Shown: positions 19,404 to 63,068 of the stretch, one piece after another | Numbering within the stretch: position 1 is the first letter of the stretch | How the letters are laid out: each line of letters begins with the position of its first letter | NCBI GenBank assembly: GCA_965225995.1 | Contig: CBDDCF010000030.1 | Coordinates: 36,101-100,100, forward strand | Length of the DNA: 64,000 nucleotides | Source of the DNA: Acidobacteriota bacterium | Lineage (GTDB): Bacteria; Acidobacteriota; UBA6911; RPQK01; CBDDCF01 | Direction: 5' to 3' | Notes under the pieces: model-generated | Databases searched by the model: none | Told to the model about the DNA's origin: nothing | The model's input: the letters and a program-made list of their open reading frames with translations, nothing else | Translations under genes and position numbers: made by a program

Positions 19404-19429
19404 CCCAATATCCTTTACAATGCGGCCTA

Positions 19430-21818: not shown

Positions 21819-21866
21819 CCGGATGATCCCGGCCCTGTAGCCGAAAACTTGTGAATGATCCGGGCC
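21819..21866 (+). repeat. MITE-like ~48-bp element, copy A
   Basis: GGATGATCCCGGCCCTGTAGCCGAAAACTTGTGAATGATCCGGGCC. Related copies at 24142, 29816 and 54418 (the last in opposite orientation). Confidence 0.4.
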
Positions 21867-21892
21867 AAATCCCCCATGCTATACTCGCCCCG

Positions 21893-22492: not shown

Positions 22493-22580
22493 CTCCCAAC
22501 TCACAAGTAATTTAGAAATCCGACTGGAATTCCCTGAAGTCTACCCAGCTTCCGGTGGTGAGTTGGAAGTTGGGAGTTAA
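22490..22580. terminator. Large hairpin between the convergent ribA and thioredoxin-like genes, built from CTCCCAA-type repeats; putative bidirectional terminator
   Basis: Left arm TAACTCCCAACTCACAAG pairs with right arm GGTGAGTTGGAAGTTGGGAGTTAA. A related hairpin lies at 41656-41760. Confidence 0.45.
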
Positions 22581-22588
22581 TCCGGAAG

Positions 22589-24204: not shown

Positions 24205-24307
24205 ACCGGCTCAATATAGCACAGCAAAGACTCCTTTTCGGCGGCCCGTCCCGATTCCCACATGTGTCAGGACAACCTGCTAGGATAGGTGAATAAAAGG
24301 TGAAATT

Positions 24308-25177: not shown

Positions 25178-25237
25178 GCTAAGAGCCTGTCCGAGTATTG
25201 GTGGCGGATTGCGTACCAGGGTCTCGCCAAGTTTCTT

Positions 25238-25550
25238 TCTTGAATGATCCGGCGCAGCCGGTGGACGGGCTAAGATGACACTTGATTTGTGGGACGAGTA
25301 TGGCACAGGCTTTCTTGGAGTTCTCTCCCTGGATGGCATTGAAGTGGTTTCGGATGTGGGAGGGGCCGTTCCCAGGCCGCGAAAGGGCCGTCAGGCCCGA
25401 CTATGAAGATCTTATTTTATTAAGATCGCCGTCTCAGAAGGCGCCTCCCACGGTTTTGAAACACCGCTTTCCTCCGCGACACCATCCCCCGTTGTGGCTT
25501 CCCGGGAGCTCAAGTTACTTTCCTGAATGATCCGGCCACCGGCCGGGGGA
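25238..25550 (+). repeat. ~265-bp structured repeat, copy 1 (core 25270-25527), flanked by ~35-bp MITE-like direct repeats
   Basis: Core starts CTAAGATGACACTTGATTTGTGGGACG. ~85% identical to 52249-52515. Flanking gaatgatccgg...gggctaa segments lie at 25241-25274 and 25516-25550. Confidence 0.6.
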
Positions 25551-25666
25551 TGGGCTAACCTGAAACTTTCTAAGGCGCTGCAAGCGCTTCCTGGTTTGGG
25601 ATGTCAGAGTTGATGAATGGGGTAGGAAACGAATCCAGGCCGAAAATCGGCTACTATGGGAAACCC

Positions 25667-27784
25667 ATGAAGTCATTGCTGGGGCTCCCCGTTCAAGGCA
25701 TTTCGGGAATTGCCGGCAAGCGGGCCGCCGTCCTTGAAGGAGCAGGCATTTGCACGCTCGAGGACATGCTCTGCTACCAGCCGTTCCGCTATGAAGATCG
25801 ACGTGAGTTCCGTGCTTTGAGCCGTTTGGTGGAAGGCCGGAAGGTCCTGTTGCGGGGGCAAATCCGGGCCGCCGGCACCTTTCAAACCCCACGCAAGCGG
25901 GTGCGGATCTTCGAGGCCGTGGTGGCCGACGATTCAGGGAGCCTTCCCCTGAAGTTCTTTAATCAAGGTTATCTGGAAAAAGTCTTGCGTCGGGGGAGTG
26001 AGATCGTCCTCTACGGGGTTGCTCGCCGCGACTCCTACACGGGGCAGTTGACGATGGTGAATCCCGAATTCGAGCTGATCAATGCCGATCAGGATCAGGG
26101 GATTCATATGGGGCGAATTGTGCCGGTCTATCGGCGCATCGGCAATCTGCCGACCCGAGCCCTCCGGCAAATCATGTTTCGCGTTTTGCGCACTCTCTCG
26201 AGGGGCGATGTCGGAGACTTGCTTCCGGCCGAGCTCCTTGACAAGTATCGACTTCCGGGCCAGCTGGAGGCTTTTCAGCAGCTTCATTTTCCGGAGGTCG
26301 AGGGTTCTGGATTGGCTTTTGTGGAGAGCTTGAATGAGGCTCGCAGTCCGGCTCATCAGCGCTTCATCTTCGAAGAGTTCTTTCTCTTCCAACTGGGACT
26401 GGCGGAATTGAAGCGACGTCGACTGGTGGAGCCGCGTCCACGCAGTCTCGAGATCAAGCCGAAAATACGAGACGTGATCAAGCGAATCTTGCCCTTTCAC
26501 CCCACGGCGGCGCAAAAACGGGTATTGAAGGAAATTGTTGATGATCTGACTGGGGAGCGAGTCATGAGCCGGCTATTGCAAGGGGATGTCGGATCGGGAA
26601 AGACGATCGTAGCCTTGCAGGCGATGGTCGTGGCCCTCGAAAATGGTTTCCAGACCGCTTTGATGGCTCCTACTGAGTTGCTCGCAGAACAGCATCTGAG
26701 GACCTTTCGCGAGCGCTTTGAGCACGTTCCGTACAACATTCAATTTCTAAGTAGCCGGGTGAAGGGAAAAGAACGCAGAGACGTCCTAGACGAGGTGGCG
26801 GATGGTCGGGCCCAAATCGTCATAGGAACCCACGCGCTCTTCCAGGAAGATGTGCAGTTTGCCGATCTGGGGCTGGTCGTGATCGACGAGCAGCACCGCT
26901 TCGGGGTGGTACAGCGCTCCCAGCTGATGCACAAAGGGAGAAAGCCCGACACGCTGGTCATGACTGCTACTCCGATTCCCCGGAGTTTAGCCCTGACGGT
27001 GTATGGTGAGCTGGATCTATCCGTCATCGACGAGTTGCCGCCGGGTCGAAAGCCAATCGAGACCCGAGTCTGTGGCGAGGGGCAGCGCTCGGCAGTCTAC
27101 CAATTCTTGGATCGGGAATTCGAAGCTGGACGGCAAGCTTATGTAGTTTATCCGCTGGTGGAAGAGTCGGACAAATTGCAGCTCAAGGCGGCCACAGAGA
27201 TGGCGGCTCTCCTGCAGGAGAAGATATTTCCGGAACGTCAAGTAGGACTCGTACACGGGCGACTGAAGGGGGAGGAGAAGGAGGAGCTGATGCGCCGCTT
27301 CCAGTCTGCAGACTTGGATCTGCTGGTGGCGACAACAGTAATCGAGGCGGGTATCGATGTGTCAAATGCTACTGTGATGCTGGTCGAGCATGCCGATCGA
27401 TTCGGGCTCTCGCAACTCCATCAGCTGCGCGGTCGTATCGGGAGAGGAAGTCAGCGTAGCGTATGCATCCTGATGGTGAGCGATGAGATAACGGAAGAAG
27501 CGCGGCTGCGGCTCGAGATCATGGCCCAGACCAATGACGGTTTCAAGATTGCCGAGCGTGATCTTGAACTGCGCGGGCCAGGAGAGTTCGTGGGAACCCG
27601 CCAGTCGGGAGTACCGAATTTTCGTTTTGGCAATATCGTGCGCGATCGGCGCTGGCTAGAACTGGCCCGTGAGGAGGCCCAGAGCTGGTGGAAACGGCAA
27701 GATCCGAAATCTTCGGATCCGGCCCTGCTCTCCTCGGTGCGCAGCCAGTGGAAGCGCCGCTTTTCTCTTTTCGAAGTGGGATGA
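25667..27784 (+). CDS. recG: ATP-dependent DNA helicase RecG
   Basis: Wedge domain, helicase motifs GDVGSGKT, DEQHRFG, and QLHQLRGRIGRG. Start MKSLLGLPVQGISG at 25667 is preferred. Confidence 0.9.
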   Translation: MKSLLGLPVQGISGIAGKRAAVLEGAGICTLEDMLCYQPFRYEDRREFRALSRLVEGRKVLLRGQIRAAGTFQTPRKRVRIFEAVVADDSGSLPLKFFNQGYLEKVLRRGSEIVLYGVARRDSYTGQLTMVNPEFELINADQDQGIHMGRIVPVYRRIGNLPTRALRQIMFRVLRTLSRGDVGDLLPAELLDKYRLPGQLEAFQQLHFPEVEGSGLAFVESLNEARSPAHQRFIFEEFFLFQLGLAELKRRRLVEPRPRSLEIKPKIRDVIKRILPFHPTAAQKRVLKEIVDDLTGERVMSRLLQGDVGSGKTIVALQAMVVALENGFQTALMAPTELLAEQHLRTFRERFEHVPYNIQFLSSRVKGKERRDVLDEVADGRAQIVIGTHALFQEDVQFADLGLVVIDEQHRFGVVQRSQLMHKGRKPDTLVMTATPIPRSLALTVYGELDLSVIDELPPGRKPIETRVCGEGQRSAVYQFLDREFEAGRQAYVVYPLVEESDKLQLKAATEMAALLQEKIFPERQVGLVHGRLKGEEKEELMRRFQSADLDLLVATTVIEAGIDVSNATVMLVEHADRFGLSQLHQLRGRIGRGSQRSVCILMVSDEITEEARLRLEIMAQTNDGFKIAERDLELRGPGEFVGTRQSGVPNFRFGNIVRDRRWLELAREEAQSWWKRQDPKSSDPALLSSVRSQWKRRFSLFEVG

Positions 27785-35773: not shown

Positions 35774-36074
35774 AATAACGTACCAATTGTTGGGAGCGCG
35801 ACGCGAGTCAGGTCGAGGCGCGAGGACGAGATTGATGCAGGCCATCTTCGAGCTCCGAGCAACAAAGAGCTGGCCGCGTCTCGCCCCCACCCTACGGGCG
35901 AACGGGGCTTGTTGTACAGCCTGCAAGCTGTAGCTGGCCTGGCCAACAAAATGTTGCGGCCGATCTCTGTGTCGAGAGTCGTCGAAGATGCCGGGTATCG
36001 AACTTCCTCCTCTCTCCTTGACCTCGACTCGCAAGACCCGTTCGCAATGGGCACGTTATTTCGGAATCGCTTGT

Positions 36075-36947
36075 CTAGACCCGATGAACGGTGGCGACAT
36101 AGTGCCTTAGATCGCTGAGGCAGTTGAAGTGCTGGCAGTCATGAAAAACCTCCTCGAGTTCATGAGATTCGAAACCCTGCCCATAGAGCAGAACCGGAAG
36201 CCGATATTCTTCAATCACTTCGGAAAGCGCTTCGATGCCGTCGCTGGGATGAACTTCCCCTGTCGAAACCAGGCAAACCAGATTGACCGGCTCTCTTAGC
36301 ACCATTTCCGCGACCATTCGGAAGGATACCGAACTCCCCAGATTGAGGCACTCCCAGCCATCGGTCTCCAGGATTCTAGCGATTCCATTGACCGTCAGTG
36401 GTCGGAATGAGTCGGGAGTTGCGCAAAGACCCATCTTGCCATTCGGTCGTCGGCGAATCACCTGCGGAAACATATAGCTCATCGACTCTTCGAGGTTATT
36501 GCTGATCAGCCGAATCTGACCTCCCGTAATTTTACCTCCGCGCCTTCTCTGTAACGCCGCCTCCAGGATTGGAACCAGAATTCGGTCATAGATTTCGACC
36601 ACGCCGACTCCCCGCAGGTAGAGCCGTTCCAGCAGTTCTTTGATCTGCATGCGCTGATTTCGAGTCGCCAGATAAAGCAACTGCTTGCGCACTTCTTCGA
36701 AATTCTTCTGATTGAGGAAAATCTCGATGTTGGGATTCTCCCAGTGCTCCGATGTGAGCAGGCCAGTCGTTTCGAAACCCCTCTCCCGTTGAAACTCATG
36801 AATGTCCTGCAAGATGAATCGGCGATGCCCTCCCGGCGTCCGCCGGCAGCTCAGAGAGCCAGAGTCGGCCCAGCGCTTGACCGTTGACTCGCTCACATTC
36901 CACATTTGGGCAACTTCGCGTGTGGTGTAGGTACGACTCAGACTCAT
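36075..36947 (-). CDS. MerR-family transcriptional regulator with C-terminal B12-binding-like (Rossmann) domain
   Basis: N-terminal HTH YTTREVAQMWNVSESTVKRWADSG. C-terminal domain resembles the CarH/LitR B12-binding fold, but the canonical DxHxxG His is not evident. Confidence 0.5.
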   Translation of the reverse strand: MSLSRTYTTREVAQMWNVSESTVKRWADSGSLSCRRTPGGHRRFILQDIHEFQRERGFETTGLLTSEHWENPNIEIFLNQKNFEEVRKQLLYLATRNQRMQIKELLERLYLRGVGVVEIYDRILVPILEAALQRRRGGKITGGQIRLISNNLEESMSYMFPQVIRRRPNGKMGLCATPDSFRPLTVNGIARILETDGWECLNLGSSVSFRMVAEMVLREPVNLVCLVSTGEVHPSDGIEALSEVIEEYRLPVLLYGQGFESHELEEVFHDCQHFNCLSDLRHYVATVHRV

Positions 36948-37126
36948 ATGAAGGCCACAAGATTGGCGATGTTGACGCCAAGCGAAACACCCGGGCGGAT
37001 CAGGCGACAGTCACGAATGATATGAGGGCCGGATAAGGGAAGTCAACCGCCACCGGGACCATGCCCTGCGTGAGGATTGGGCAGTCCCACCCGACCCGTC
37101 CACTCAAACTGATATAGAATAGTGAG

Positions 37127-38305
37127 ATGCGGCGTTATCCTGTTCTTTCACTGGCCTGGACTGTCACGTTCTTGTCCCTCTCTCTGGGGCAATTGACTGC
37201 TCAAGAGGCGTCTTCACCACAGCTCGAAAAGATCATCCTCAATCCCGGATTCAAGATCGACCTCTACGCAGGTAACGTACGAAATGCCCGTTCCCTCGTA
37301 AGATCTCCCGAAGGGGTTCTGTTTGTAGGCACGCGCAGCGCCGGCTTCGTCTGGGCGGTGGTGGATTCGAATGGCGACCACCAGGCGGACCGTATCGTGC
37401 AGATTGCTGAAGGACTCCTGATGCCTAACGGAGTGGCCTACCGCGACGGATCACTCTACGTGGCCGAGATAAACCGGATTCTGCGCTATGACAATATCGT
37501 CGAGCGGCTAGACAATCCGCCAACCCCGGTTGTGTTGAACGACAGCCTGCCGAAGGATCGTCACCACGGGTGGAAGTTCATCGATTTCGGTCCCGATGGC
37601 AAGCTCTATGTCCCGGTGGGAGCCCCTTGCAATATCTGCGAACGCCTGGACGATGATCGCTATGCTTCTCTCCTGCGGATGAATCCCGACGGGACCGGCC
37701 TCGAAGTCTTTGCCAAAGGGATTCGGAATACGGTCGGCTTCGCCTGGCATCCCACAACGGGAGACGTCTGGATCACCGACAATGGTCGCGACTGGATGGG
37801 GGACAATATGCCTCCCGATGAGCTGAACCGGGCCACCCGGTCGGGCATGCATTTTGGATTTCCCTATTGCCATGGCGGATTCATGGCTGACCCAGAATTC
37901 GGATCCATACGGGGTTGTGACGAATTGACTCCGCCAGCACAAAACCTGGCTCCCCATGTGGCAGCCCTGGGAGCCGAGTTCTACACCGGAGCCATGTTCC
38001 CCAAGGAATACCGGAATCAGCTCCTCATTGCCGAGCATGGTTCCTGGAACCGTGCCCTTCCCCTCGGTTTTCGAGTCACTCTGGCCCGTATCCAAGACAA
38101 CACCAAAGTTGTGAACTATGAGGTGTTTGCTGAAGGATGGCTGGCGGGGGAAGAGGTCTGGGGACGTCCGGTGGATCTGCTGCAGCTACCCGATGGATCC
38201 CTACTTCTCTCGGATGACCAGGTGGGCGCGATCTATCGAATCAGCTACGATGCTGCGCTGGCCCTCGAGCAGGCCCCGGGTCCGCGCCGTCGCGGCGGCG
38301 ATTAG
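37127..38305 (+). CDS. PQQ-dependent sugar (sorbosone/glucose) dehydrogenase-like beta-propeller, secreted
   Basis: Signal peptide. Length and the HGG, DNGRD and PDG motifs are typical of soluble quinoprotein dehydrogenase family proteins. Confidence 0.55.
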   Translation: MRRYPVLSLAWTVTFLSLSLGQLTAQEASSPQLEKIILNPGFKIDLYAGNVRNARSLVRSPEGVLFVGTRSAGFVWAVVDSNGDHQADRIVQIAEGLLMPNGVAYRDGSLYVAEINRILRYDNIVERLDNPPTPVVLNDSLPKDRHHGWKFIDFGPDGKLYVPVGAPCNICERLDDDRYASLLRMNPDGTGLEVFAKGIRNTVGFAWHPTTGDVWITDNGRDWMGDNMPPDELNRATRSGMHFGFPYCHGGFMADPEFGSIRGCDELTPPAQNLAPHVAALGAEFYTGAMFPKEYRNQLLIAEHGSWNRALPLGFRVTLARIQDNTKVVNYEVFAEGWLAGEEVWGRPVDLLQLPDGSLLLSDDQVGAIYRISYDAALALEQAPGPRRRGGD

Positions 38306-38375
38306 AGTTCGGCTGAAATGCGATCGCAGAGTGTTGTGTTGCAATCCGGAGATCAACTCAAGCCCGACTACAAAG

Positions 38376-38450
38376 CTTTTATTTTCAATAAGATCGCCGC
38401 CTGGGAAGGCACCTCCCACGGTTTTGAAACTCTGTTCTCCTGAAAGGCAG
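38376..38450 (+). repeat. Partial copy (~75 bp) of the ~265-bp structured repeat
   Basis: AGATCGCCGCCTGGGAAGGCACCTCCCACGGTTTTGAAAC matches the core of the copies at 25413-25478 and 52395-52460. Confidence 0.45.
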
Positions 38451-38522: not shown

Positions 38523-40297
38523 CTACTTTAGCTTAGGTAAGACCGCCAGCCGAAGCTCTTCTAACTGCTCTGGAGTCACCGGCGAGGGCGCCCCTGACAT
38601 CAGATCGAGAGCACGGGCCGTCTTGGGAAAAGCGATCACCTCGCGTAGCGAAGACTCCCCGGCCAACAGCATGGCGATCCGATCCAGGCCAAGAGCGATT
38701 CCTCCATGGGGAGGGGCACCGTAGCGTAGTGCTTCCAAGAAGAAACCGAAGCGCAGGTCGGCTTCCTCGTCCTGGATCCCCAAGAGCTGGAAGATCTTCC
38801 GCTGGACCTCGGTCTGATGGATTCGGATGGAGCCTCCGCCAATTTCGGAGCCGTTCAAGACGACGTCATAGGCCTGGGCGAGGGCAGCACTTGGATCAGT
38901 TTTCAAGAGAGCTTGATCTTCAACCCGCGGCGCCGTGAAAGGGTGATGGAGTGAGTAGTATCGACCATCAGCCTCATTCCATTCCAAGAGTGGAAAATCT
39001 TGAACCCAGAGAAGGTTCCAGGCGTCGGGAATCAGATTTCGCTGAGTGGCGACATGGGAACGCAGGGCCGCCAACGAATCATTGACTACCTTGGGCTGAC
39101 CCGCCACGATCAAGAGGATGTCCCCGGTTTTCGATCCTGCCAGCCGGCAAACTCGCTCCAATTCGGGCTCGGTCACCACCTTGGGAAGTGAGCTGCGGAT
39201 ACCTTCCGGGAGGTGTTGGATCCACGTCAGAGCCTGGGCTCCGAAAGCTTTGATGAATTCTCCGAGCTGGTCGAGCTGTTTTCGACTGAGTTCGGTTCCC
39301 CCTTCGAGGCAGATTCCCTTGATTTGTCCTCCACTCTCGAGAATGCTCCGAAAGATCCGAAACTGGCTGCTCTCGAAACCACCACTCAAATCGACTAATT
39401 CCAATCCGTATCGGGTGTCGGGCCGGTCGGTGCCGAAGCGTTCGACCGCTTCGTGGTAGCTCAGACGCGGGAAGGGAAACGGGAATCTCGACGCCGATCA
39501 GCTGGAAGAGATCGGCCAGCAGGCTTTCGACCGTGCTCAAGACAATCTCGCGGTTCACGAAAGACATCTCGATGTCGATTTGTGTGAATTCGGGCTGACG
39601 ATCGGCCCTTAGATCCTCGTCGCGGAAGCAGCGTACGATCTGGAAGTAGCGATCGAATCCCGAGATCATCAGGATCTGCTTGAAGATCTGTGGGGATTGA
39701 GGAAGCGCATAGAAGTGTCCCCTCTTGGAGCCGGCTCGGTACCAGGTAGTCGCGAGCCCCCTCCGGAGTCGATTTCGTCAAGAAGGGAGTTTCAATTTCC
39801 AAGAAACCCTGTGCGTCGAGATGCTTCCGAACGCTGAGAGCGATCTGATGACGGAGTTTCAAGTTCCTCTGGAATTGCGGGCGACGCAGATCGAGATAGC
39901 GATAGCGAAGCCTATTTTCTTCGCTGATAGCGGCTTTTTCGCTGAGCGAAATGGGAGGAGTATCGGATCGGTTTAGCAGTACGACTTTTTTGGCCAGAAC
40001 TTCGATCTCGCCGCTCGGCATGTCCGGGTTGACTGTTTCAGGAGAGCGATGAACGACCTCTCCCTGAACCAGGACGACGAACTCCGAGCGCATCTGCTTG
40101 GCGGTTTCGAAGGCTTCCACGGATTCGGAATTCACGGTCACCTGAACGATCCCTTCCCGATCCCGTAAGCTCAGGAAAATGAGGTTGCCCAGGTCTCTGC
40201 GATTGTGGACCCAGCCCATGAGAGTAACCTGGCTCGAGGCGTCAGATGCACGCAAGAGTCCACAATAGTTGGTTCTCGAAGACGTGGTTTGATTCAT
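38523..40297 (-). pseudogene. aspS: Aspartyl-tRNA synthetase, interrupted by at least two frameshifts (pieces 40297->~39730, ~39669->~39490, 39404->38523)
   Basis: N-terminal piece with anticodon-binding region and [25 protein letters not shown]. Middle piece [52 protein letters not shown] in another frame. C-terminal piece with motif 3 GGIALGLDRIAM in a third frame. The first shift is at a CCCC run (~39730). Confidence 0.85.
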
Positions 40298-40342
40298 GCA
40301 AGATTCTCCAGCTCGACCACTACTCGGACAGGATCTTCACAA

Positions 40343-41620
40343 TCAAGAAGACAGCCGATCGAGCAAAGTCGCTGTCAGTGACTCCCGACTGACTGGGATC
40401 TGCTCTCCATCCAGCATCTGTTTGAGAACCATTTCTCCCGACTGCAGCTCATTCTCGCCGAGCACGCAAGTGAAGCGCGCCCCAACTCGATTGGCCCACC
40501 TCAATTGAGCCTTGAGCGATCGGGCCGCGAAGTCGACTTCGACCCGGATGCCGTGCTCGCGTAAGGACTTCTGCAGAGACAGTGCCGCTCGAAAAGTCTC
40601 TTCGTCGAAATAGATCAAGATCAGATCTGGAACCGGTAGCTGGAAAGGCGACTGAATACTGTCGCGCCCGGAGAGTAACAGCACGAGTCTCTCCAATCCC
40701 ATGGCAAAGCCGAATCCTCGAGTCGCAGTTCCCCCCAAGATTTCTGCCAGGCCATCGTACCGACCCCCTCCAACCAGAGCATTCTGGGTGGGTCCCAACT
40801 GGTCGCTGATGATTTCGAAAGTAGTTCGAACGTAATAGTCGAGCCCCCGAACCAGTCGGGGCTCCTCCGCATACTCGAGCCCGTGCAAATCGAGGTAGCT
40901 CTTGAAGCCGGCATAATGCGTTTGGCATTCCTCACACCAGTGCTGGTCGATGGTTGGCAGCTCGGCAATCCAGGGCTGACAACTGGGAACTTTGCAGTCG
41001 AAAATGCGGAGCGGGTTGCTTTCCAGGCGCCGATGGCACTGTCCGCATAGCTGGTCCAGTCACCAGAAGCGCCTGGCGCCGCAGTAGAGCGACAAAAGCT
41101 GGCCGGCAGTTTGCGCAGCCCACCGAATTCACGAGCAGACGGTACTCCCGCAACCCCATCCGGCTCAAAAAGCCAGTCAGCATTTCGAGGACCTCGGCTT
41201 CGACAGCTGGGATGGTCCCGTTCCCAGGACTTCGGCCCCCAGTTGGTGAAACTGGCGGTAGCGACCCTTCTGGGGACGTTCGCGTCGAAACATTGGACCC
41301 ATGTAGTAGAGTTTGATAGTCGAGGAGAGGGCCTGCAGATTGTGCTCCAGATAGGAGCGAACTACTGGCGCAGTGCCCTCTGGTCTCAGGCTCATGCGGT
41401 TTCCGCGAGTATCTTCGAGAGTGAACATCTCCTTTTGGACGATGTCGGTCTCGCCTCCGATACTGCGTGTGAAGAGTTCGGTCTCTTCCAATACAGGGGT
41501 CCGAATCTCGTCAAATCCATAGCGCGGAAAGAGTGCACGGACAGTGGATTCGATCCGCTGCCACAGCTCGACTGAGCCGGGCAGAATGTCGTGTGTCCCC
41601 CGGATTGATCTGACGTCCAT
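40343..41620 (-). pseudogene. hisS: Histidyl-tRNA synthetase, interrupted by at least two frameshifts (pieces 41620->~41180, 41183->40932, 40888->40343)
   Basis: N-terminal MDVRSIRGTHDILP...LRPEGTAPVVRSY...FRRERPQKGRYRQFHQLGAEVLG. Middle LSRMGLREYRLLVNSVGC in a second frame. C-terminal GLDYYVRTTFE...GGGRYDGL and the anticodon-binding domain in a third frame. Confidence 0.8.
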
Positions 41621-41655
41621 GATGATCTTCCCCGAAAAGCATGCATTATAGCTTG

Positions 41656-41760
41656 TAACTCCCAACTCCCAACTCCCAACCGGAGGGGGGCCGTATCCAA
41701 GTCGGCGGTACCCATGCCCGCAGACTTATTTGTGAGTTGGTAGTTGGGACTTGGGAGTTA
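41656..41760. repeat. Large hairpin built from (CTCCCAA)n arms with a ~50-nt loop, between comE-like and hisS
   Basis: Left arm TAACTCCCAACTCCCAACTCCCAAC; right arm GTGAGTTGGTAGTTGGGACTTGGGAGTTA. Related to the 22490-22580 hairpin. Confidence 0.5.
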
Positions 41761-42349
41761 TTCCCAATGTCTGACGCAGTTGGTGGGCGGATTCGGCTAT
41801 TGAATCCCGCAGGAAAGGCTCAGTAACGTCCGGGCCACGTCGGATTGGGCCCTCCTTTCCCGGCCGGATGTGGGCCTGGGCGAAACGGGGACCGGTAAGG
41901 TGGATCAGGGCTTCGATGTCCGCCTCGACCTGCTCTGCGCGATGCCACTCGAAAGTGTGGGGGATACCGGCGGCTCGAGCCATCGCAGCCAGTTGGAGTT
42001 TTCCGATGGCCGGAACAGCCTGATTGCCGGTGATCTCGTAGACTCCATTCTGCAGCACCACCAGGATCAGATTGGCCAGCTCGGCTTCCGAGATAGTGGC
42101 CAGAGTGCCCAGGCTCATGAGCATACTGCCGTCACCGTTCAAGCAGAGGATCTGCCGTTCCGGTCGAGCCAGAGCCAGCCCCAGAGCCAGGTCTGCGGTA
42201 TGTCCCATGGCGCTATCAGCCGACACGAAGTCGAGCTCGGGACGAGCCGACAGCCAGCCCCAGGTTCGCACCGCTCCCATGGTTGTCACCACCACTTCAT
42301 CGGTCCGGCTCCGACCCAGGATTGTGAGGAACTCCTCTCTTTCCATCAT
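41726..42349 (-). CDS. TPP-dependent decarboxylase beta subunit (ComE-like: sulfopyruvate/phosphonopyruvate decarboxylase C-terminal TPP-binding domain)
   Basis: GDGSMLMSLGTLATI TPP-binding motif. Start overlaps the stop of the upstream alpha-subunit gene. Confidence 0.55.
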   Translation of the reverse strand: MMEREEFLTILGRSRTDEVVVTTMGAVRTWGWLSARPELDFVSADSAMGHTADLALGLALARPERQILCLNGDGSMLMSLGTLATISEAELANLILVVLQNGVYEITGNQAVPAIGKLQLAAMARAAGIPHTFEWHRAEQVEADIEALIHLTGPRFAQAHIRPGKEGPIRRGPDVTEPFLRDSIAESAHQLRQTLGITPKSQLPTHK

Positions 42350-42897
42350 AGCGAGGTTGCCGCGATTCCAGCCTCGACCAGAACAGCCGCGGGATGTTGG
42401 TGAAGCTGAGCCCACTGCGAGGCCTTCTCAATGCAGCCTATATCGTGGTCTTGACGCAGGCTCCAAAAAGGGATTCCCCATCCTCGCAATGTGGGCTCTG
42501 TCAACAGAGATACCGAGTCGATTCCGGGGTCGGAGAGATCATCCCGACGGGGAGGGTCCGAGAGGCTTACGCGCCGTGAGGCTGGGAGATTCGCATAGCC
42601 CCGGCAGGTGACGAGGCTGAGTACCGGAATCCTCATTCGAACCAGTGTTCCGCGTAAACTGTCGCCACTCTCCAACAGCCCTGTGTTCTGAATCAACACG
42701 CTGGGAGTCTTGCCCCCGATCCATAGGCCAGCCGCTATCGCGAAAGCTTCCCCTTCGCGGGTTACGGTCAGGTTCTGAATCGCAGCTTGTAGATTCAACT
42801 CGCTGTGCAGAGCCGCCGAAGCATTGTCCGGAATCCCCACCACATGAGTCACTCTCAAACTGCGGAGCGCTCCGAGTACGAGCTTGGCAGTGAGCAT
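42346..42897 (-). CDS. TPP-dependent decarboxylase alpha subunit (ComD-like N-terminal pyrimidine-binding domain)
   Basis: TPP_enzyme_N-like domain: VTHVVGIPDNASAAL...EGEAFAIAAGLWIGGKTPSVLIQNTG. Confidence 0.55.
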   Translation of the reverse strand: MLTAKLVLGALRSLRVTHVVGIPDNASAALHSELNLQAAIQNLTVTREGEAFAIAAGLWIGGKTPSVLIQNTGLLESGDSLRGTLVRMRIPVLSLVTCRGYANLPASRRVSLSDPPRRDDLSDPGIDSVSLLTEPTLRGWGIPFWSLRQDHDIGCIEKASQWAQLHQHPAAVLVEAGIAATSL

Positions 42898-43203
42898 GGA
42901 TTAATATCTCCGTCTCTTCAATTGGCCCTGGGGGGAGAGCGACGCGGTTCCGTTGATCCGCTGTTCGTCGCTCCCCCGGGAGTGTAAACTGTCTCTCTTC
43001 CGAGAGCCAGGTAGCCCGGTGGAACTGACCTGATTTTGCGCCCCCGGCGCCTTGCAGCAAACTTTCAAACAAGTGCTTGAGAGTTGTGCCATGAAGTTCA
43101 CTGGGAATCGATAACCGGACCCTGGCGTTGCAGTGCTGGCTCTCAGAGCGCCAAGCGGCAGCGCGAGCGCGGGAAAGCGTGTGCCGGACATGAGCGTCCC
43201 GGC

Positions 43204-45180
43204 TCATCTTTGTAACGACATTAGTCGTGTGAAGATGGCCCGGACTGTCGGCGTCAGTCGACCTCGATTGTAGGCATCTCCACATTGGCGGATCGCTTCG
43301 GCGGCCGTTGGGTAGGGGTGAATCACACTGGCCAGCTTCCCGAGCCCCATTCCGGCCTGGATGGCGACACTGATCTCACTAATCAGCTCTCCGGCGTGGG
43401 GTCCGACGACGGTGGCTCCCAGGATCTCGTCCTTCCCTTTTCTCACATGGATCTTGACGAACCCGGAAGTCTCGCCGTCCACGATTGAACGATCCACCTC
43501 CGAGAAATCGTGGCGGAAGGTTTGGTACTCGACTCCCTGCTCCTCCAGATCCCTTTCGTAGAGTCCCACGTGAGCTACTTCGGGATCGGTATAGGTCGAC
43601 CAGGGGATGAGCAGGGAGGAAAACTTGTCCCGACCCAGGAAGAGAGCATTCCGGATCACCAGCCGGGCCATGAAATCGGCCACATGGGTGAACTGGAACT
43701 GGGTGGCGACATCGCCGGCCGAATAGACGTTGGGATTGCTCGTCTGAAGCCGATCATTGACCTTGATCCCGCTCCGGGTATCAAAATCGATTCCGGCTTC
43801 CTGCAGCCCCAGATTATCGACAGTCGGCTTTCGGCCAGCCGCAACCAACAGCTGATCGAATTCGAGCGACCGCTGCAGCCCGGCTTGTTCGAAGATCACT
43901 CGAATGGGTCCATCCAGGCCCTGGCTCTCAATCGAGGAGTAGCTCACTGAATATTCAAAGATCACACCGTCTTCGCGCAGACTGGCAGCCACAACGTCGG
44001 CAGCCTCCGGGTCCTCCTTGGGAAGGATTCCTGCCCGACGAGAGAATACCGTCACGGCCGATCCCAGGCGAGAGAAAGCTTGTGCCAGCTCGAGCCCGAT
44101 TGGGCCAGCGCCGATCACCCCCAGGCGGGGAGGCAGTTGGGTCAGGTTGAAGACCGACGCATTGGTTAAGAACGGGGATTCCCGAAGTCCCGGAATGGAG
44201 GGAATCGCCGCCGTTCCTCCTGTGGCGATCACGGCCTTGGAAAAACGCAGGGTCTCGCCGTTGACCCGGACCGAATCAGGGCCGCTAAAAGTGCCTCTTC
44301 CCAGAAAGACGTCGACCCCGAGTCTGGCAAATCGCTCGGCCGAGTCATGCGGAGCGATGTCGGCTCGAATCCGACGGAGTCGTTCCATCACGGCCGGGAA
44401 GTCGACCGATACCTGTCCATCGATTCGGATCCCGAATTCTGCGGCCCGTTTTACAGCCGCTGCCGCTCGCGCACATCGAAGCAAGGCCTTGGAGGGCACG
44501 CATCCTACGGTGAGACAATCCCCACCCAAGAGATGAGACTCGATCAGAGCGACCCGGGCTCCCAGGCCGGCTGCCGCAGCTGCCGACACCAGTCCACCCG
44601 TTCCCCCTCCAAGCACGACCAGATTGTACCGTTCCGCAGGGTTAGGGGCCTCCCACCGAGCGGGATGAGCGTGATCGAGAAGCCGGGTATTGTGATCGTC
44701 GAGGGGAGCGATGCCAATCTCTTCCAAATCTTCGGCGGGGAACTCTCCCAGCCTGTCATCCCGCTCCGGCAGTCGCGGTTGCAGCGAATCAGCAGTCGGA
44801 CCGGTCGGGCCCAGAAAATCGGCCCAACTAACCTTGCTTCCATCCGATCTTGTAGCCACCTGACCGTGTTCTTCGTCTTTGGCAAAGCGGTAGAATAAAT
44901 AGTCATCCCGGAAGGGATGAGCCTGCTGAACATGATGGAAGATACCGGCACTGAGCAGAATGTTTCCGATCCGCAAAGCGTCTGCGATATCGCTGGCGAA
45001 ACCTTCACGAATCAGCACCTGAACGGCCTCGCTTCCCACGAAGCATTTGAGGTAGGACTTGGCCGGAAATCCGTGCTTTCGGTCCGCAATATCGAATAAC
45101 TGATGAGTGCGTTGGGCCAGAGCCTCTAGTTCGTTTTTCGAAAATTGGGCCTCTTCCCCTGGGCGATCCTGCTGTGTCAT
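43204..45180 (-). CDS. Pyridine nucleotide-disulfide oxidoreductase (class I flavoprotein disulfide reductase) with N-terminal DEP-like domain
   Basis: Redox-active GGDCLTVGCVPSK, two FAD/NAD Rossmann GxGxxG motifs, C-terminal dimerisation domain. The N-terminal ~190 aa contain FPAKSYLKCFVGSEAVQVLIREGF...LRIGNILLSAGIFHHVQQAHPFRDDYLFYRF, which matches the DEP-domain consensus. Confidence 0.65.
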   Translation of the reverse strand: MTQQDRPGEEAQFSKNELEALAQRTHQLFDIADRKHGFPAKSYLKCFVGSEAVQVLIREGFASDIADALRIGNILLSAGIFHHVQQAHPFRDDYLFYRFAKDEEHGQVATRSDGSKVSWADFLGPTGPTADSLQPRLPERDDRLGEFPAEDLEEIGIAPLDDHNTRLLDHAHPARWEAPNPAERYNLVVLGGGTGGLVSAAAAAGLGARVALIESHLLGGDCLTVGCVPSKALLRCARAAAAVKRAAEFGIRIDGQVSVDFPAVMERLRRIRADIAPHDSAERFARLGVDVFLGRGTFSGPDSVRVNGETLRFSKAVIATGGTAAIPSIPGLRESPFLTNASVFNLTQLPPRLGVIGAGPIGLELAQAFSRLGSAVTVFSRRAGILPKEDPEAADVVAASLREDGVIFEYSVSYSSIESQGLDGPIRVIFEQAGLQRSLEFDQLLVAAGRKPTVDNLGLQEAGIDFDTRSGIKVNDRLQTSNPNVYSAGDVATQFQFTHVADFMARLVIRNALFLGRDKFSSLLIPWSTYTDPEVAHVGLYERDLEEQGVEYQTFRHDFSEVDRSIVDGETSGFVKIHVRKGKDEILGATVVGPHAGELISEISVAIQAGMGLGKLASVIHPYPTAAEAIRQCGDAYNRGRLTPTVRAIFTRLMSLQR

Positions 45181-45423
45181 AAGTGAACTCCTTATTCGCG
45201 ATGAGTCGGAACCCGCAGTGTAACCTTACAGAACGAACCCCCGATTTCGCCGGCCCATCCCCCTGCCGCGCACACTCCTAGGCACCTACCCACGTTCTTT
45301 GTGGCCTCCTCGTCGGTTTGAGGCAGGATTATCGGAGCGCCGTGTCCTCAGCCCGGGGCCTGCCCTCCGAAGCCTTGGCGAAGGGCGGCGGGGAGAATTG
45401 ATCGGCAGTGAAACGTAGTTCTC

Positions 45424-45440
45424 CTATTGAACCCCAATAG
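45424..45440 (+). promoter_or_regulatory. Palindrome CTATTGAACCCCAATAG ~40 bp upstream of padR; candidate PadR operator
   Basis: Perfect 6-bp inverted arms CTATTG/CAATAG. A second half-site-like TCCTATTGG lies at 45457-45465. Confidence 0.3.
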
Positions 45441-45478
45441 AACTTTTCGCGTATCCTCCTATTGGTGGGTAATATGAA

Positions 45479-45823
45479 ATGAAGAAGCAACGCTCGGAAC
45501 TCCTCCAGGGAACCCTCACCCTCTTAATCCTACGCACGCTGGCGCTCGGAGCTCTACATGGCTATGGGATTTCGCAGCGTCTCGGCCAGATGACTGAAGG
45601 TGTCTTCAGCGTAAATGTGGGGACGATCTTTCCAGCCCTCCACAAGCTGGAACAAGAGGGCTATCTGAAAGGCTACTGGGGACGTACCGAAAACAATCGA
45701 CGGGCCCGTTTCTACCAACTCACCCGGCCTGGCGCGCGCCGTCTGCGTGCCGAAGAAGAGGGCTGGAAGCGAGTCACGAGTGCAATCGGCAAAGTTCTGG
45801 AAGCAACTCGGGTGATGCCCTGA
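45479..45823 (+). CDS. PadR-family transcriptional regulator
   Basis: Winged HTH: LTLLILRTLALGALHGYGISQRL ... LEQEGYL. Confidence 0.8.
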   Translation: MKKQRSELLQGTLTLLILRTLALGALHGYGISQRLGQMTEGVFSVNVGTIFPALHKLEQEGYLKGYWGRTENNRRARFYQLTRPGARRLRAEEEGWKRVTSAIGKVLEATRVMP

Positions 45824-45835
45824 CGAGGACAAGCA

Positions 45836-48675
45836 ATGAAACTGTTTTATTGGATACGGGCTTTGGTGACTGGTTTGAGAGGGCGCAAACGGCAGGAAAG
45901 TAGTCTGAGCGACGAGTTGGAGAGCTTTCTCAATCTGGCAGTCGAAGACAAGTGTCGGCAAGGAATGACACCCCAGCAAGCGCGTCGCGAAGCGTTGATC
46001 GAATTGGGTGGCCTGGAGCCGACTAAAGAGCGAGTACGGGATGGCCGAGTTGGGGAGGGATTGGAACGGGTATGGCAGGACGTCCGCTTTGCCTCCCGGC
46101 TCCTTCGTGCACATCCTGGTTTCTCAGTGGCAGTGCTGTTGACCTTGGCTCTCGGGGTGGGGGCCAACAGCGCGATTTACAGCCTCGGGCAAGCGGTTCT
46201 CTTTCGCTCCGCACCCGTGGAGCGGCCCCAAGAACTGGTGGCCGTCTGGACCACATGCCGGCGCGGCGCGCCGCAGTGCGCCAGTTCCTACCCCGACTAC
46301 CTGGACTACCGAGAACGGTCTCCTACACTTCAGGATTTGGCGGCATATTCTTGGAAGGCGATCAGTTTGGCCTCGGAAGCGGGCAGTCGAGTGGTGACGG
46401 CTCAGCTGGACAGTGGAAATTACTTTTCCATGCTCGGAGTGGGCACCCTTCTGGGTCGCTCTTTGTTGGAGTCGGATGATCGGTTGGGGGGCGCGCCGGT
46501 GGCTGTCCTGGGTCACCGCTTCTGGGTCTCTCATTTCGCCTCTGATCCTCAGATCATCGGAACAGTTATTCGCCTCAATGGTGAGCCTTTCCAGGTTGTA
46601 GGGGTCACTCCAGCAGGCTTCGACGGCTTGCACCTGGGAGCCGGTCCCGACCTGCATATTCCCCTTCAAGCGCTCCCCCTGTTGAGCGTAAATGCCGAAC
46701 GGGCTCGGCAGCGATTTTCGACTCGCGGCTCGCGCTGGATTCCTCAGTTGGTTGGCCGGCGTCTGCCGGGAACGACGTTGGAAGCGGTTCGCCAAGAGAT
46801 GGCCGCCATTTCGGAGCAGTTGGCCAAGGAGGATCCCGAGTCCCGTGGACCGCGCAAGATAACTATCGAGCCTGCAGCTCAGTTCATTCTGCCGGTGTCG
46901 CGAGCCCAGGACGTGGTGGCCTTCGTTTTTCTTCTGGGAGGAGTGGTTGGGCTGACCTTGCTCCTGGCTTGCGCCAATCTCTCGAATCTCTTGCGGGCTC
47001 GAGGACTGGCGCGGCAACACGAAATGGGGATTCGGGTGGCTATCGGAGCGAGTCGAGGGCGCCTCGTGAGACAGCAGATCACCGAGACTCTGGTTCTAGC
47101 ACTGTTGGGAGGAGGCCTCGGACTCCTGGTGGCCCGACTCATGCTGGCCGGGATCGCTTCGTTTGAATTGCCGGGCGGAATCCTGATCGAATCGGTTCAT
47201 CCGGAGCTCGACTGGGGAGTCCTCCTCGCGACTTTCGGTGTCGCCTTGTTGGCAGGATTGTTGGCGGGCTTCTTACCCGCCCTCCAGGGCACCCATTTCC
47301 GACTCGCAAAAATACTGGTTCAGGGGGCCGGCCGGGTCGACTCGACTCCTGCTGGCCATCACCTGCGCAGGGCTCTGGTCGGAATTCAGTTGGCCCTCTC
47401 GTTGGTCTTGCTGGTAGGGACAGGGCTCTTCTTGAAATCGCTGCAAAACGGATTCGCGACCGATCTCGGCTTCCGGAGCGAAGGCCTGGTCACCGCTCGG
47501 GTCGATCTCTCTTTGCTCCACTACTCCGAGGCAGAGGGGCGCCGCCTGTTGGAACAACTCATCGAGCGCTTGGAGGCCTATCCTGGAGTTGAGTCGGCGG
47601 GAGTCGGAAGCCGGCTTCCACTTGGGACAGGAGGATCAGCAACATTTCTCTCTCGGGTGGAGGGCTATACTCCCGCACCCGACGAGGAGCTCCGCATCAA
47701 TATCGAGTTTTTCCGGCCAGCTTTGCGCGCACCCTCGGACTTCAGCTAGTTGCCGGTGAAGCTCTGACAGCGAATGGCGGAGTGGACCATATCTTGATCA
47801 ATCGAGTGATGGCCGAGCGGTGGTGGTCGGGGAGAAATCCGGTGGGCGGACAAGTGCAGATGGGAGAGCGGACATTCCAGGTCACGGGAGTGCTGGAAGA
47901 TGTCCACTGGAGGGCTCAACTAGAGGAGCCATCGCTGCCTTTTGTTTTCTTTCCACTGGAGACCTCACCCTCCCGAGCGGAGGATAGCCCGATGGCGGTC
48001 TTCGCCAGAACCAGTGGGGATCCAAGCGCTCTCATGACCTTTCTCCGCGAGCAGGTGCATCAGCTCGACAGAAATCTCAGTCCCACGGCGATGACTGCCA
48101 TGGACGACCGCCTGGCCCACCTTTTGATGCCGCAGAGAATGGCAGCTTTCCTGTTTACTTGCTTTGGATCCCTGGGGCTTCTGCTGGCGGCCGTCGGAGT
48201 CTACGGCATCACCAGCTTCAGCGTCGGTCGACGCTCTCGTGAAATCGGCCTTCTCATCGCGGTGGGAGCCCGGCGCTGGCAGATCCTGTGGTTGATGGCG
48301 CGGCAATTAGCCCTACCCGTCATCCTGGGACTGGGTCTGGGAATCCTCCTCACCGGGCTACTTTCGGGGGCGGCCGAGAGTTTCCTGCTGGGTCATTCTG
48401 CAATTGATGGCGGAGCGATCCTGCTCAGCTTGGGTGCCCTCCTGATTGTCGTCTTCGGTGCCTGCCTGATCCCGGCCTCCCGTGCCTCCCGACTCGATCC
48501 CTGCAGGCGCTGCGGACCGAATGATGCTTGTCGGAAAGCAGCTAGATTTCATTGCGCCTCAGACCGACGAGGCGCCCGGAGAAGCTTGGCGGAGCCCTTC
48601 GGAGTGTGCGCGGCCAGACCGCCGCCTTTCCCTCGAAAGCGGTACTTGGACTGCCCATCCGGCTTGCCGATTTGA
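45836..48675 (+). CDS. ADOP-family ABC transporter permease (duplicated FtsX/MacB-like), with a -1 frameshift at a T5 run near 47705 (ORFs 45836..47749 and 47782..48675)
   Basis: N-terminal MacB-like periplasmic domain and two FtsX 4-TM blocks. Sequence continuity (...EFF | RTLGLQLVAGEALT...) is recovered by shifting frame at gagtttttccgg. Confidence 0.7.
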
Positions 48676-49156
48676 GGGCTGAAGGCTCTGTCATGGGAGG
48701 CTGTTGCCGAACTCGGGGTGAGCTTGTGGTGGTTTTCCGGCGCAACGGGTCTTGGGAATCGAGGGATGTGAACTACCGACGGTTTCAGGCCGGATACCAA
48801 AGCGGCAGCTCAATTTCATAGAGAATCGTCTAGTTTTCGTCAGCGATTCCGCTGCAGCACCAAATCGGCTCGCCGATTTGGAGTGCGCCTAGGAGCCTGT
48901 CCGAGTATTGGGGTGCGGTTGCGAACAGGGGTCTTGTGAGTCGAGCCGCTTTGGTATCCGGCTGAGCGTCGTGATCTTGAGTAGTCCAATAGTCCGGCAA
49001 TAGATGCCATGGCTACAGCGCCAAGGTACCGGCGGCGCGAGAATGTACAAGTCCAGCTGCTGTCGGCTGCCCAACCGGCTTCATCTGTCGCTGTTAACTA
49101 TAGTGTCTATCGATATAGCTTAGTAATCCATAGTCTTGCGTTCTGGAGAGCTTTCT

Positions 49157-49537
49157 ATGAATTCGCCAAGTCGAGATCCTGGAGACCTGATTCCACTGAC
49201 TCCTCTGGTTTTCCATGTCCTGCTTTCGCTGGTTGCTCAGCAAAGCCACGGCTACGCGATTATTCAGGATGTGCGAGAGCGGTCGGGCGGCACGGTCCGG
49301 ATTGGCTCGGGAAGCCTTTACGCGGCCATCCGTCGACTCCTGCAATCGGGTTTGGTGACAGAGGTTGACGAGCGTCCCGCTCCGGAAGCCGATGATGAGC
49401 GCCGCCGCTACTATGCCATGACTCGGCTCGGTCGCCGCGTGGTTCGGGCTGAAACCCAGCGGATGGCGGAAGCGGTGCGTATGGCCGAAGGGCTGCTCCT
49501 GGCCCGCCCGCCGGCAGGGGAGACTTCCGGAGAATGA
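49157..49537 (+). CDS. PadR-family transcriptional regulator (ATG with GGAG RBS; alternative TTG at 49136)
   Basis: LTPLVFHVLLSLVAQQSHGYAIIQDV...LLQSGLV. Confidence 0.7.
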   Translation: MNSPSRDPGDLIPLTPLVFHVLLSLVAQQSHGYAIIQDVRERSGGTVRIGSGSLYAAIRRLLQSGLVTEVDERPAPEADDERRRYYAMTRLGRRVVRAETQRMAEAVRMAEGLLLARPPAGETSGE

Positions 49538-52236
49538 ACTTTCAACCGACCCACCGGAGCCGGATCGAACGGCTGCACCATCGGCTCCTTCAGATACTCT
49601 ATCCGATCCTGTTCCGGCGGGAGTTCGGGGATCAGATCGAAGCTACCTTTCGCGACCTCTGCCGCCAGGCCAAAAGAGAGGTACGCCCTGGATCCTTGCT
49701 CCATGTCTGGATAGGAGAACTCTTCTACCTGGTCACGACAGCAATCTTTGTCAGGTTTGAAGAAGTCAAACGCAGTTTCCCGGCGTCTCCGGCGCCGGAA
49801 CTGTCAGAGAGGAACAAGATGCTCGATTCCATCCTTCAAGATTTCCGTTACAGTCTCCGGTCGATCCTCCGCCAACCCTTCTTCTCCTTGCTCGTGATTG
49901 CCACGCTGGGATTGGGTGTAGGAGCCAACAGTGCCATCTTCAGCGTCGTTAGTGGGACTCTGCTGACACCTCTTCCTTATCCGGGATCGGAGCGGATCGT
50001 GACCCTTTGGGAGGATTTTTCGGCCCAGGGCGGCCCCTCCCAGGAATGGATCGAAGTGCCTAATTTCTTCGAGTGGAAAGAGCATAGCCAATCCTTTGAA
50101 ACGATGTCGGCTTTTGGTTTCAATCAGGTCAATCTGATGTTGGGTGACGAGGCCGAAACGGTTACGGGCGCAGTAGTTTCCCATGATTTCTTCCGAGGTT
50201 TTGGCGTGGAGCCGGCACTGGGTCGCGAGTTTACGTCCGAGGAAGATAGTCCCGGTGCTGAACCGGTGGCGATTCTCTCCCACCGCCTCTGGCAAGAGCG
50301 ATTGGGTGCTGATCCTGAGATTCTGGGACGTTCCATGATGATCAATGATCAGTCGGCCACCGTAATAGGGGTCCTTCCCAAGGGTTTTCAGACTCCTCTC
50401 GCCAACCAGGTAGCGGTTTGGCAACCCGTGAGAATCAGCCCTACTTCGCACGGGCGGAGCAACTTCTTCTTGCAAGGCATCGGCCGGCTGCGAGAAGGCG
50501 TGTCGCTGGAGCGGGTGCGGGTCGAGATGAACTCAATCATGCAGCGGATCGGTCAGGAGTTTCCCAAAGATGCCGGTGTCACGATGCAGGTCATTCCGCT
50601 GTTGGATCTGATCATGCAGCCGGTCAGGACTTCGCTCTGGGCGCTGATGGCTGCCGTTTTTCTGGTTCTGCTTATCGCTTGTGCCAACATTGCCAACTTG
50701 GTGCTGAGCCGGACTGTAATCCGCCAGCGGGAGATGGCGGTGAGAGCTGCGATTGGAGCTGGACGTCAGCGTCTAGTTCGTCAACTCCTGACGGAGAGCA
50801 TGCTCCTGGCCTTGTTTGGTGGAGGGCTTGGGTTGGGGTTGGGCGTGTTGGGATGTAACCTCCTGATCTCGCTGGCACCGCCCAACGTACCCAGACTGGA
50901 TGAAGTCGGTTTGAACACCAGCGTGTTGCTTTTTACGCTAGGTGTCAGTCTGCTCAGCGCTGTGATCTTCGGGCTGGCACCGGCCCTACATGGTTCGCAT
51001 TCGGACCTCAATGCGGCCCTCAATGCCGGGGGGAGGGAAGCCCGAGGGCCGACCGCCGGGAGTCGGTTGCGGTCGGCTTTGATCGTCGCCGAAGTGGCGT
51101 TAGTACTCACCCTCTTGGTGGGATCCGGCTTGCTGCTCCGCAGTTTCGCGCGCCTGCAGCGAGTGGATCCCGGCTTCCGGCCGGAGGGGCTCATCTCTAC
51201 CGGCTTGCGCTTGTCTCCCACCCGCTTTCCCAAGACTGAGAACCTCCGCGGATTCGTGCAGGACCTGGTCTCGCGAATCGAAGGCAATGTCGGGATCGAG
51301 GCGGTCAGTGGAATCTCGGTTCTCCCTCTGGGGGGAAGCGACTCGGACACCGGTTTCTCCATCGAAGGGAGACCCGCTCCGACTCGTCCCCAGGATCAAC
51401 CTGTCGTCTGGTTTCGTCGCACGCTCCCCAAGTACTTCTCTACCATGGGCATTCCTCTACTCCAAGGCAGAGACTTTCGGGACTCCGATCACGCCGATGC
51501 TCCTGGTGTAGTGATGATTAGCGAAGTGGCTGCCGAACGCTATTGGCCGGAGGAAAGTGCTCTCGGAAAAAGGGTCAGATTTGGCTCGAACGGGGCCTGG
51601 AGCACGATCGTCGGAATCGTCCCGGGAATCCGCCATCGAGCCCTGAATCAGATTCCGCGTCCCGAACTTTATTTCCCCTATGCACAACGCCCCGGACGAT
51701 TCGTCAATTTAATTGCGAAGACAGAGTTGCCTACTGCTACAGCTGCCGGGCTGATTCGAGCCGGTATCCGCGAACTGGCCAGCGGGCTCCCGATGCTGGC
51801 CGTCTCGCGCCTCGAGAACCTGGTTGAGGCCTCAATCGGACAGCAACGCTTCATCATGAAAATGACCGGTGGCTGCGCAACACTGGCAGTGGTACTGGCG
51901 GCGGTGGGCATTTACGGAGTCATTTCCTATTCGGTGAGCCAACGGACTTACGAGATTGGCTTGCGCATGGCGCTGGGTGCCCAGCGCTCGACTGTTCTAG
52001 CCATCATTTTGCGCCAAGGATTCCTGCTGACCGTGATCGGAATTGCGATCGGAATTGGGCTCTCCCTGTGGGCAACGAGGTTCATTTCATCGCTGCTCTT
52101 TAATACCAGTTCCACAGATCTTCTGACATTTCTGATGACGGCGACTCTGCTGGGCATTGTCGGCCTGGTCGCTTGTCTGGTGCCCGCCTACCGGGCCACT
52201 CGGATCGATCCCCTGAACGCGCTCCGCTGTGAATAA
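49534..52236 (+). CDS. ADOP-family ABC transporter permease (intact, 900 aa)
   Basis: Same architecture as 45836..48675. Start overlaps the PadR stop. Confidence 0.8.
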   Translation: MNFQPTHRSRIERLHHRLLQILYPILFRREFGDQIEATFRDLCRQAKREVRPGSLLHVWIGELFYLVTTAIFVRFEEVKRSFPASPAPELSERNKMLDSILQDFRYSLRSILRQPFFSLLVIATLGLGVGANSAIFSVVSGTLLTPLPYPGSERIVTLWEDFSAQGGPSQEWIEVPNFFEWKEHSQSFETMSAFGFNQVNLMLGDEAETVTGAVVSHDFFRGFGVEPALGREFTSEEDSPGAEPVAILSHRLWQERLGADPEILGRSMMINDQSATVIGVLPKGFQTPLANQVAVWQPVRISPTSHGRSNFFLQGIGRLREGVSLERVRVEMNSIMQRIGQEFPKDAGVTMQVIPLLDLIMQPVRTSLWALMAAVFLVLLIACANIANLVLSRTVIRQREMAVRAAIGAGRQRLVRQLLTESMLLALFGGGLGLGLGVLGCNLLISLAPPNVPRLDEVGLNTSVLLFTLGVSLLSAVIFGLAPALHGSHSDLNAALNAGGREARGPTAGSRLRSALIVAEVALVLTLLVGSGLLLRSFARLQRVDPGFRPEGLISTGLRLSPTRFPKTENLRGFVQDLVSRIEGNVGIEAVSGISVLPLGGSDSDTGFSIEGRPAPTRPQDQPVVWFRRTLPKYFSTMGIPLLQGRDFRDSDHADAPGVVMISEVAAERYWPEESALGKRVRFGSNGAWSTIVGIVPGIRHRALNQIPRPELYFPYAQRPGRFVNLIAKTELPTATAAGLIRAGIRELASGLPMLAVSRLENLVEASIGQQRFIMKMTGGCATLAVVLAAVGIYGVISYSVSQRTYEIGLRMALGAQRSTVLAIILRQGFLLTVIGIAIGIGLSLWATRFISSLLFNTSSTDLLTFLMTATLLGIVGLVACLVPAYRATRIDPLNALRCE

Positions 52237-52248
52237 GTAGCATTGCTT

Positions 52249-52515
52249 CTAGGATGAAACTTGATTTGTGGGACGGGTATGCCACAGGCTTTCTTGAAGT
52301 TCTCTCCCAGGATGGCATTGAAGTGGTTTCGGAGGTGTGGGAGGGGTCCTTCCCAGGCCGCGAGAGGGCCGTCAGGCCCGAATCTAAAGATTCTATTTTC
52401 AATAGAATCGCCGCCTCAGAAGGCGCCTCCCACGGTTCTGAAACACGGCTTTCCTCTGCCACATCATCCCCCCTTTGTGGCTGACAGGGAGCTCAGTTTC
52501 CAACAATTTCCACCC
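52249..52515 (+). repeat. ~265-bp structured repeat, copy 2, 13 bp downstream of the ADOP permease stop
   Basis: CTAGGATGAAACTTGATTTGTGGGACG... ~85% identical to 25270-25527. An internal hairpin carries compensatory substitutions between the copies. Confidence 0.6.
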
Positions 52516-62973: not shown

Positions 62974-63068
62974 CGGCGCATCCTACGAGGGATGCAGCTC
63001 TCAATGGCTCCTGAAAATGGCCGGTTTTGAAGTGGCCCTCACTGGCCGCTTTTGGGTGGCCCCTGACA

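Follow-up and report, generated by a model that had tools for sequence, protein, structure and literature searches.

Bacterial genes whose reading frame appears broken can be compared with several kinds of known system. Programmed +1 frameshifting, of the prfB type, and transcriptional slippage at long homopolymers in endosymbionts are two of these; true frameshift pseudogenes are another. A further kind is technical in origin, and Watson and Warr are said to have drawn attention in 2019 to gene-fragmenting indel errors in long-read assemblies. In long-read genome and metagenome assemblies, homopolymer-length consensus errors that give rise to false frameshifts or pseudogenes are well documented (Sereika et al. 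2022, PMC9262707; Kastor, PMC12007338).

Here we consider two interrupted genes, hisS and aspS, in the window, by which we mean the whole 64 kb stretch of DNA that was analysed. Our preferred reading, to which we assign a probability of about 90%, is that the organism possesses intact and adjacent hisS and aspS genes and that the five inserted bases which break them are false calls in this one assembly.

Two interrupted synthetase genes

The adjacent hisS and aspS genes, both encoding class II aminoacyl-tRNA synthetases, lie on the minus strand between 38.5 and 41.7 kb, and each is present as three ORF pieces:

40343..41620, minus strand: hisS (histidine–tRNA ligase), interrupted by three extra bases; 424 aa once these are removed
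41665/41620..41177, minus strand: hisS piece 1, ORF; 147 aa counted from the ATG at 41620
41183..40932, minus strand: hisS piece 2 (middle), ORF of 83 aa
40888..40343, minus strand: hisS piece 3, ORF of 181 aa
38523..40297, minus strand: aspS (aspartate–tRNA ligase), interrupted by two extra bases; 590 aa once these are removed
40297..39461, minus strand: aspS piece 1, ORF
39669..39079, minus strand: aspS piece 2, ORF
39404..38523, minus strand: aspS piece 3, ORF

Pieces 1 and 3 of hisS match successive parts of the Pfam families tRNA-synt_His and HGTP_anticodon, and the middle piece (83 aa) gave no Pfam match. The aspS pieces match successive parts of tRNA_anti-codon, tRNA-synt_2 and GAD in the same database. 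When intact HisRS and AspRS were used as tblastn queries both genes were covered from end to end in the window. The breaks are genuine features of the window sequence and are not due to chance.

The sequence-only reading had described hisS as split into three ORF pieces, and the same pieces were recovered, as named, in our ORF list. It had also placed the three segments in three different frames, which is incorrect, since pieces 1 and 3 share a frame (41620 − 40888 = 732 = 3 × 244; each position being 1 mod 3). The displaced part of the gene is central and measures just some 160 nt (+2, then +1). Nor do the ORF ends serve as borders of the segments, the real shift points being 41217, 41211 and 41056. 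Coding sequence runs from 41620 to 41218, continues for two codons (Asp-His, 41217..41212) in the third frame, extends from the Pro codon at 41211/41210, in which the second insertion lies, to 41057 and is completed by 41056..40343. There is no uninterrupted hisS frame in the window as written, with stops at 41179–41177 and 41062–41060 in the frame of the N- and C-terminal parts. The neighbouring aspS had been thought to be broken in a similar manner and this is indeed so, with three pieces in three frames and shifts of +1 at 39719 and +1 at 39481.

The surroundings of the two genes have features of their own. Inverted repeats of tandem heptamers, (GTTGGGA)n, occupy 41657–41759, between a TPP-enzyme gene and the start of hisS and just upstream of a TATAAT sequence, and a similar pair is found at 22491–22578; there are eight matches, where chance would give 0.21. 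The RNA of 41640–41770 (minus strand) folds at −55 kcal/mol (z = −4.0) and has no match in Rfam. The structure may represent a terminator or else a palindromic element dispersed among intergenic regions. The TPP enzyme is encoded by two genes (41726–42897, minus strand), one for an alpha-like subunit of 183 aa and one for a beta-like subunit of 207 aa, with weak matches to sulfopyruvate/phosphonopyruvate decarboxylase that fall under the curated cut-offs.

At 43204–45180 (minus strand) is a gene for a 658 aa protein in which an N-terminal DEP domain (PF00610) precedes a pyridine-nucleotide disulfide oxidoreductase with its dimerisation domain. DEP is mostly known from eukaryotic signalling proteins and the combination is unusual for bacteria. 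Modules of PadR and MacB/FtsX occur twice, at 45479–48675 and 49009–52236. A pair of overlapping ORFs at 20883–22228 carries an SLT domain in one ORF and no Pfam match in the other.

Five inserted bases and related assemblies

The closest assembly, ENA ERZ28763718 ctg125702 (7.44 Mb), was located by an exact-protein look-up with the neighbouring 392 aa gene, and it carries unbroken copies of both aspS (590 aa) and hisS (424 aa). A base-by-base comparison with the window was carried out over 27127–62236 (35.1 kb). The window differs only by five extra single bases, all of them in aspS and hisS, and by five substitutions, one at 47612 and four in genes for IS transposases (59340, 59589, 59591 and 61122). 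Over the 3.1 kb of aspS and hisS there are no substitutions, the genomes otherwise being about 99.99% identical. The insertions are:

41217..41219, minus strand: hisS insertion 1 (C); plus-strand C run of 3, 2 elsewhere; shift after Thr133
41209..41211, minus strand: hisS insertion 2 (G); plus-strand G run of 3, 2 elsewhere; 6 nt past the first
41056..41057, minus strand: hisS insertion 3 (C); plus-strand CC, a single C elsewhere; original frame regained
39719..39722, minus strand: aspS insertion 1 (C); plus-strand C run of 4, 3 elsewhere
39481..39483, minus strand: aspS insertion 2 (G); plus-strand G run of 3, 2 elsewhere

Without exception the lesions are +1 changes in a C or G run, which grows from 1–3 to 2–4 bases, and this pattern is the signature of a base-calling or consensus error. 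In hisS the shifts at 41217 and 41211 give a net +2 and that at 41056 contributes +1; the N- and C-terminal parts of the gene are in one frame because the three insertions sum to +3. All five indels fall within 1,737 bp (39481–41217), and the rest of the comparison, 33 kb, has no indel at all (P = 2.8e-5 for uniform placement over the 35 kb compared with ctg125702). The tightness of this cluster indicates a local problem and not a uniformly poor contig.

Two contigs from other samples, ERZ25068854 contig_81 and ERZ25067264 ctg820905_7x_l, are 99.2–99.5% identical to the window and belong to different strains with different IS content. Compared with the window they carry only two synonymous substitutions in hisS and, in aspS, three to four synonymous and two to three non-synonymous changes. 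All five inserted bases are absent from the three independent public assemblies, which represent this organism or one nearly identical to it (99.2–99.97% identical DNA). The fragment proteins are on record for only one public contig (264,571 bp, evidently that of the window), the intact 424 aa HisRS for four contigs.

Once the five bases are deleted, the products are identical to the intact HisRS of 424 aa (P0001) and AspRS of 590 aa (P0006). The corrected HisRS scores 454.6 bits against TIGR00442, the NCBIfam hisS equivalog (cut-off 286.75), over model positions 2–404 of 406. Its score with the HisZ model, 158.5, is under the cut-off of 271.65. The class II catalytic domain (PF13393, 1–308 of 308, at residues 8–311) is followed by the HGTP anticodon-binding domain (PF03129, residues 334–419). 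The corrected AspRS scores 816.6 bits against NF001750, the NCBIfam aspS equivalog (cut-off 443).

An exact-pattern scan of GTDB representative genomes and JGI metagenome contigs for the double-insertion site, in either variant, gave no match, the species not being represented in either collection. Among GTDB r232 species representatives the nearest HisRS is that of an Acidobacteriota MAG, CBDCOR01, and since it is only 62% identical the organism appears, on sequence comparison, to be of an Acidobacteriota-like lineage that has no close representative genome. The next matches, at about 50%, are in Bryobacterales and Desulfuromonadales.

Four of the five substitutions relative to ctg125702 lie in an IS cluster (58799–63682, minus strand) that comprises an IS21-like IstA/IstB pair and a DDE_Tnp_1_4 transposase; the probable cause of these four is divergence among IS copies, or copies having been collapsed in the assembly. 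The single substitution outside IS genes, at 47612, affects residue 593 of a MacB/FtsX-type permease, which is Arg in the window and in sequencing run ERR14231558 and Trp in ctg125702.

Evidence from the contigs of a matching run

In the Logan resource each run is assembled into contigs from a de Bruijn graph, singleton k-mers being dropped, and Prodigal is used for gene calling (PMC12424806). For run ERR14231558 the contigs have, at 47612, the allele otherwise private to the window, and they match it at 100% elsewhere; the shared allele indicates that this run represents the window's own population. Independent Logan contigs are 100% identical to the window over 2846–8002, 10551–19453, 36019–38408, 45356–48654 and 48960–52284. 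Comparison with other assemblies covered all of the window but positions 1–2845, 8003–10550, 19454–27126 and 62237–64000. Exact-protein look-ups of the ORFs at 9018–10505, 17703–19484 and 58799–60136 gave no match, owing to different start calls or to allele differences. The accessions of the run and the assemblies likewise gave no match in the literature.

Logan contig L008 spans 43163..41218 and stops one base short of the first hisS insertion. From the idea that the reads disagree, we predicted beforehand a contig of 1,337 nt (41056..39720) with 'DQLCGQCH' at the start of its first gene product. Such a contig was found: L093 is 1,337 nt in length and matches 39720–41056 exactly. Contig ends at 41218, 41056 and 39720 are therefore base-exact at three shift points, which account for four of the five inserted bases, and they fall at the edges of the sequence that is common to both run-length variants. 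For the fifth site, 39481, a look-up of the guessed partial AspRS product of 38523–39479, from a Logan contig starting there, gave no match.

As judged from the contig ends, k-mers across the three shift points are either branched or were each seen only once. Uniform read support for the insertions would have let the contigs run through, and their breaking at these sites means, on this indirect evidence, that the reads of ERR14231558 are not in agreement on the lengths of the runs. Of the 14 Logan contig ends, eight lie within a homopolymer run, the base rate being 0.264 (P = 0.014), which suggests that noise in homopolymer length, at low depth, is general in ERR14231558. The ends of k-mer-graph contigs from the same run thus offer a cheap detector of disagreement among reads that does not require the reads themselves.

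One further contig, L002, ends at 38408, by one of three copies of an intergenic sequence of approximately 37 nt (38405–38441, 25437–25473 and 52419–52455; 84–86% identity). The copy at 38.4 kb adjoins 38322–38324, the site of an indel of about 19 nt in related strains.

Origin of the insertions

We consider that the stretch 39481–41217 of this MAG contig is very probably an assembly artefact and not biology. A low-quality stretch of assembly had already been suspected from the sequence and that view is upheld: the lesions are restricted to a single assembly, are all +1 in C/G runs and are clustered, and Logan contigs break at them. Its limits had been placed at about 38.5–41.7 kb and are now narrowed to 39481–41217. 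Read depth over this stretch was probably very low, with reads at odds over run lengths, and the assembler or polisher would have taken the noisier read or reads five times running. On this reading the consensus overcalls five short C/G runs by one base each, and gene callers then cut each gene into fragments. A long-read platform probably lies behind the assembly; names such as ctg820905_7x_l presumably reflect the output of a long-read metagenome assembler, which they resemble. It speaks against an artefact that the runs are short (2–4 bases), below the classic long-homopolymer context for such errors. That 1.74 kb should hold five errors and the other 33 kb none would also call for a local cause.

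Mis-assembly via a local duplicate was considered as well and rejected, the region 38.4–41.75 kb having no second copy in the window.

The practical consequence is that a public MAG record falsely shows as pseudogenes two genes for essential aminoacyl-tRNA synthetases, and fragments of hisS and aspS are already on record as separate proteins. Such entries would lower the apparent completeness of the MAG and would mislead analyses of pseudogenes and genome reduction, as well as protein databases built from the MAG. There is no new biology in the breaks, and they are worth flagging for correction.

A different view of the same observations is that some DNA in the sample truly carries the five insertions and that the assembler chose this minority haplotype, which might stem, for instance, from a localised burst of insertions by error-prone repair synthesis or from non-viable cells. 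Two true haplotypes, each present in at least two copies, would also be expected to produce the breaks in the Logan contigs of ERR14231558, and the clustering of the insertions resembles a mutation shower. Nevertheless we regard this as very improbable. The loss of two essential, single-copy aaRS genes should be lethal, and a haplotype with this defect should therefore not reach a frequency at which it is assembled. In addition, no substitutions accompany the insertions in 3.1 kb, the uniform +1 changes in C/G runs are those of base-calling or consensus error, and the insertions are absent from three other assemblies. It is decidedly improbable that the five insertions are both real and linked, the product of an insertion-mutation shower in a subpopulation that was caught by long-read sequencing. 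If that were true, one error-prone repair tract, for example, would have left its footprint in two essential genes.

The sequence-only reading had offered relaxed selection as its alternative, with functional hisS and aspS elsewhere in the genome and the copies seen here decaying as true pseudogenes. We found nothing to support this and consider it very improbable. Neither gene has a paralogue in the 64 kb window, and there are no substitutions in either when compared with the otherwise about 99.99% identical ctg125702. Even against the strains of 99.2–99.5% identity hisS has only two synonymous changes. Decay would have had to proceed by insertions, with no deletions or nonsense changes, and to strike both genes together in a locus that is intact in near-identical genomes, and reads from ERR14231558 conflict where the insertions lie. 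The TPP-enzyme beta gene provides a contrast. In ERZ25068854 contig_81 this gene has a CAG to TAG nonsense change together with three missense changes and one synonymous change, and may be a real pseudogene.

Programmed recoding, whereby ribosomal +1 frameshifting or transcriptional slippage would make the genes functional as written, can be given hardly any weight: the three hisS insertions do sum to +3 and leave the N- and C-terminal parts in frame, but the in-frame reading meets the stops at 41179–41177 and 41062–41060 between the shift sites, the runs are of only 2–4 bases with no slippery motif, the sites are not conserved even in genomes of 99.2–99.97% identity, five separate events would be needed, and an Rfam scan of 36–44 kb found no structured RNA or recoding element.

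In relation to the known systems, the two genes share with prfB-type frameshifting and slippage the requirement that an extra DNA base be skipped to give a full-length protein. They differ in having neither a conserved shift site nor a slippery or long homopolymer tract, in the stops that lie between the hisS sites and in the five events that would be required. With true bacterial frameshift pseudogenes they have in common split ORFs and recognisable domain fragments in consecutive frames. They show, however, no decay in the form of substitutions or otherwise, both of the genes concerned are essential, and their lesions occur in one assembly only, with reads that disagree. The closest likeness is to the indel errors of long-read assemblies, in which single-base homopolymer length errors split conserved genes into adjacent fragments, disappear from independent or better-supported assemblies and, when corrected, give back the full-length protein. 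Unlike the usual errors of this type, those described here occur in very short runs (2–4 bases), are all insertions and are packed into 1.74 kb instead of being spread along the contig. Their concentration in one stretch points to a local drop in support and not to a uniform error rate.
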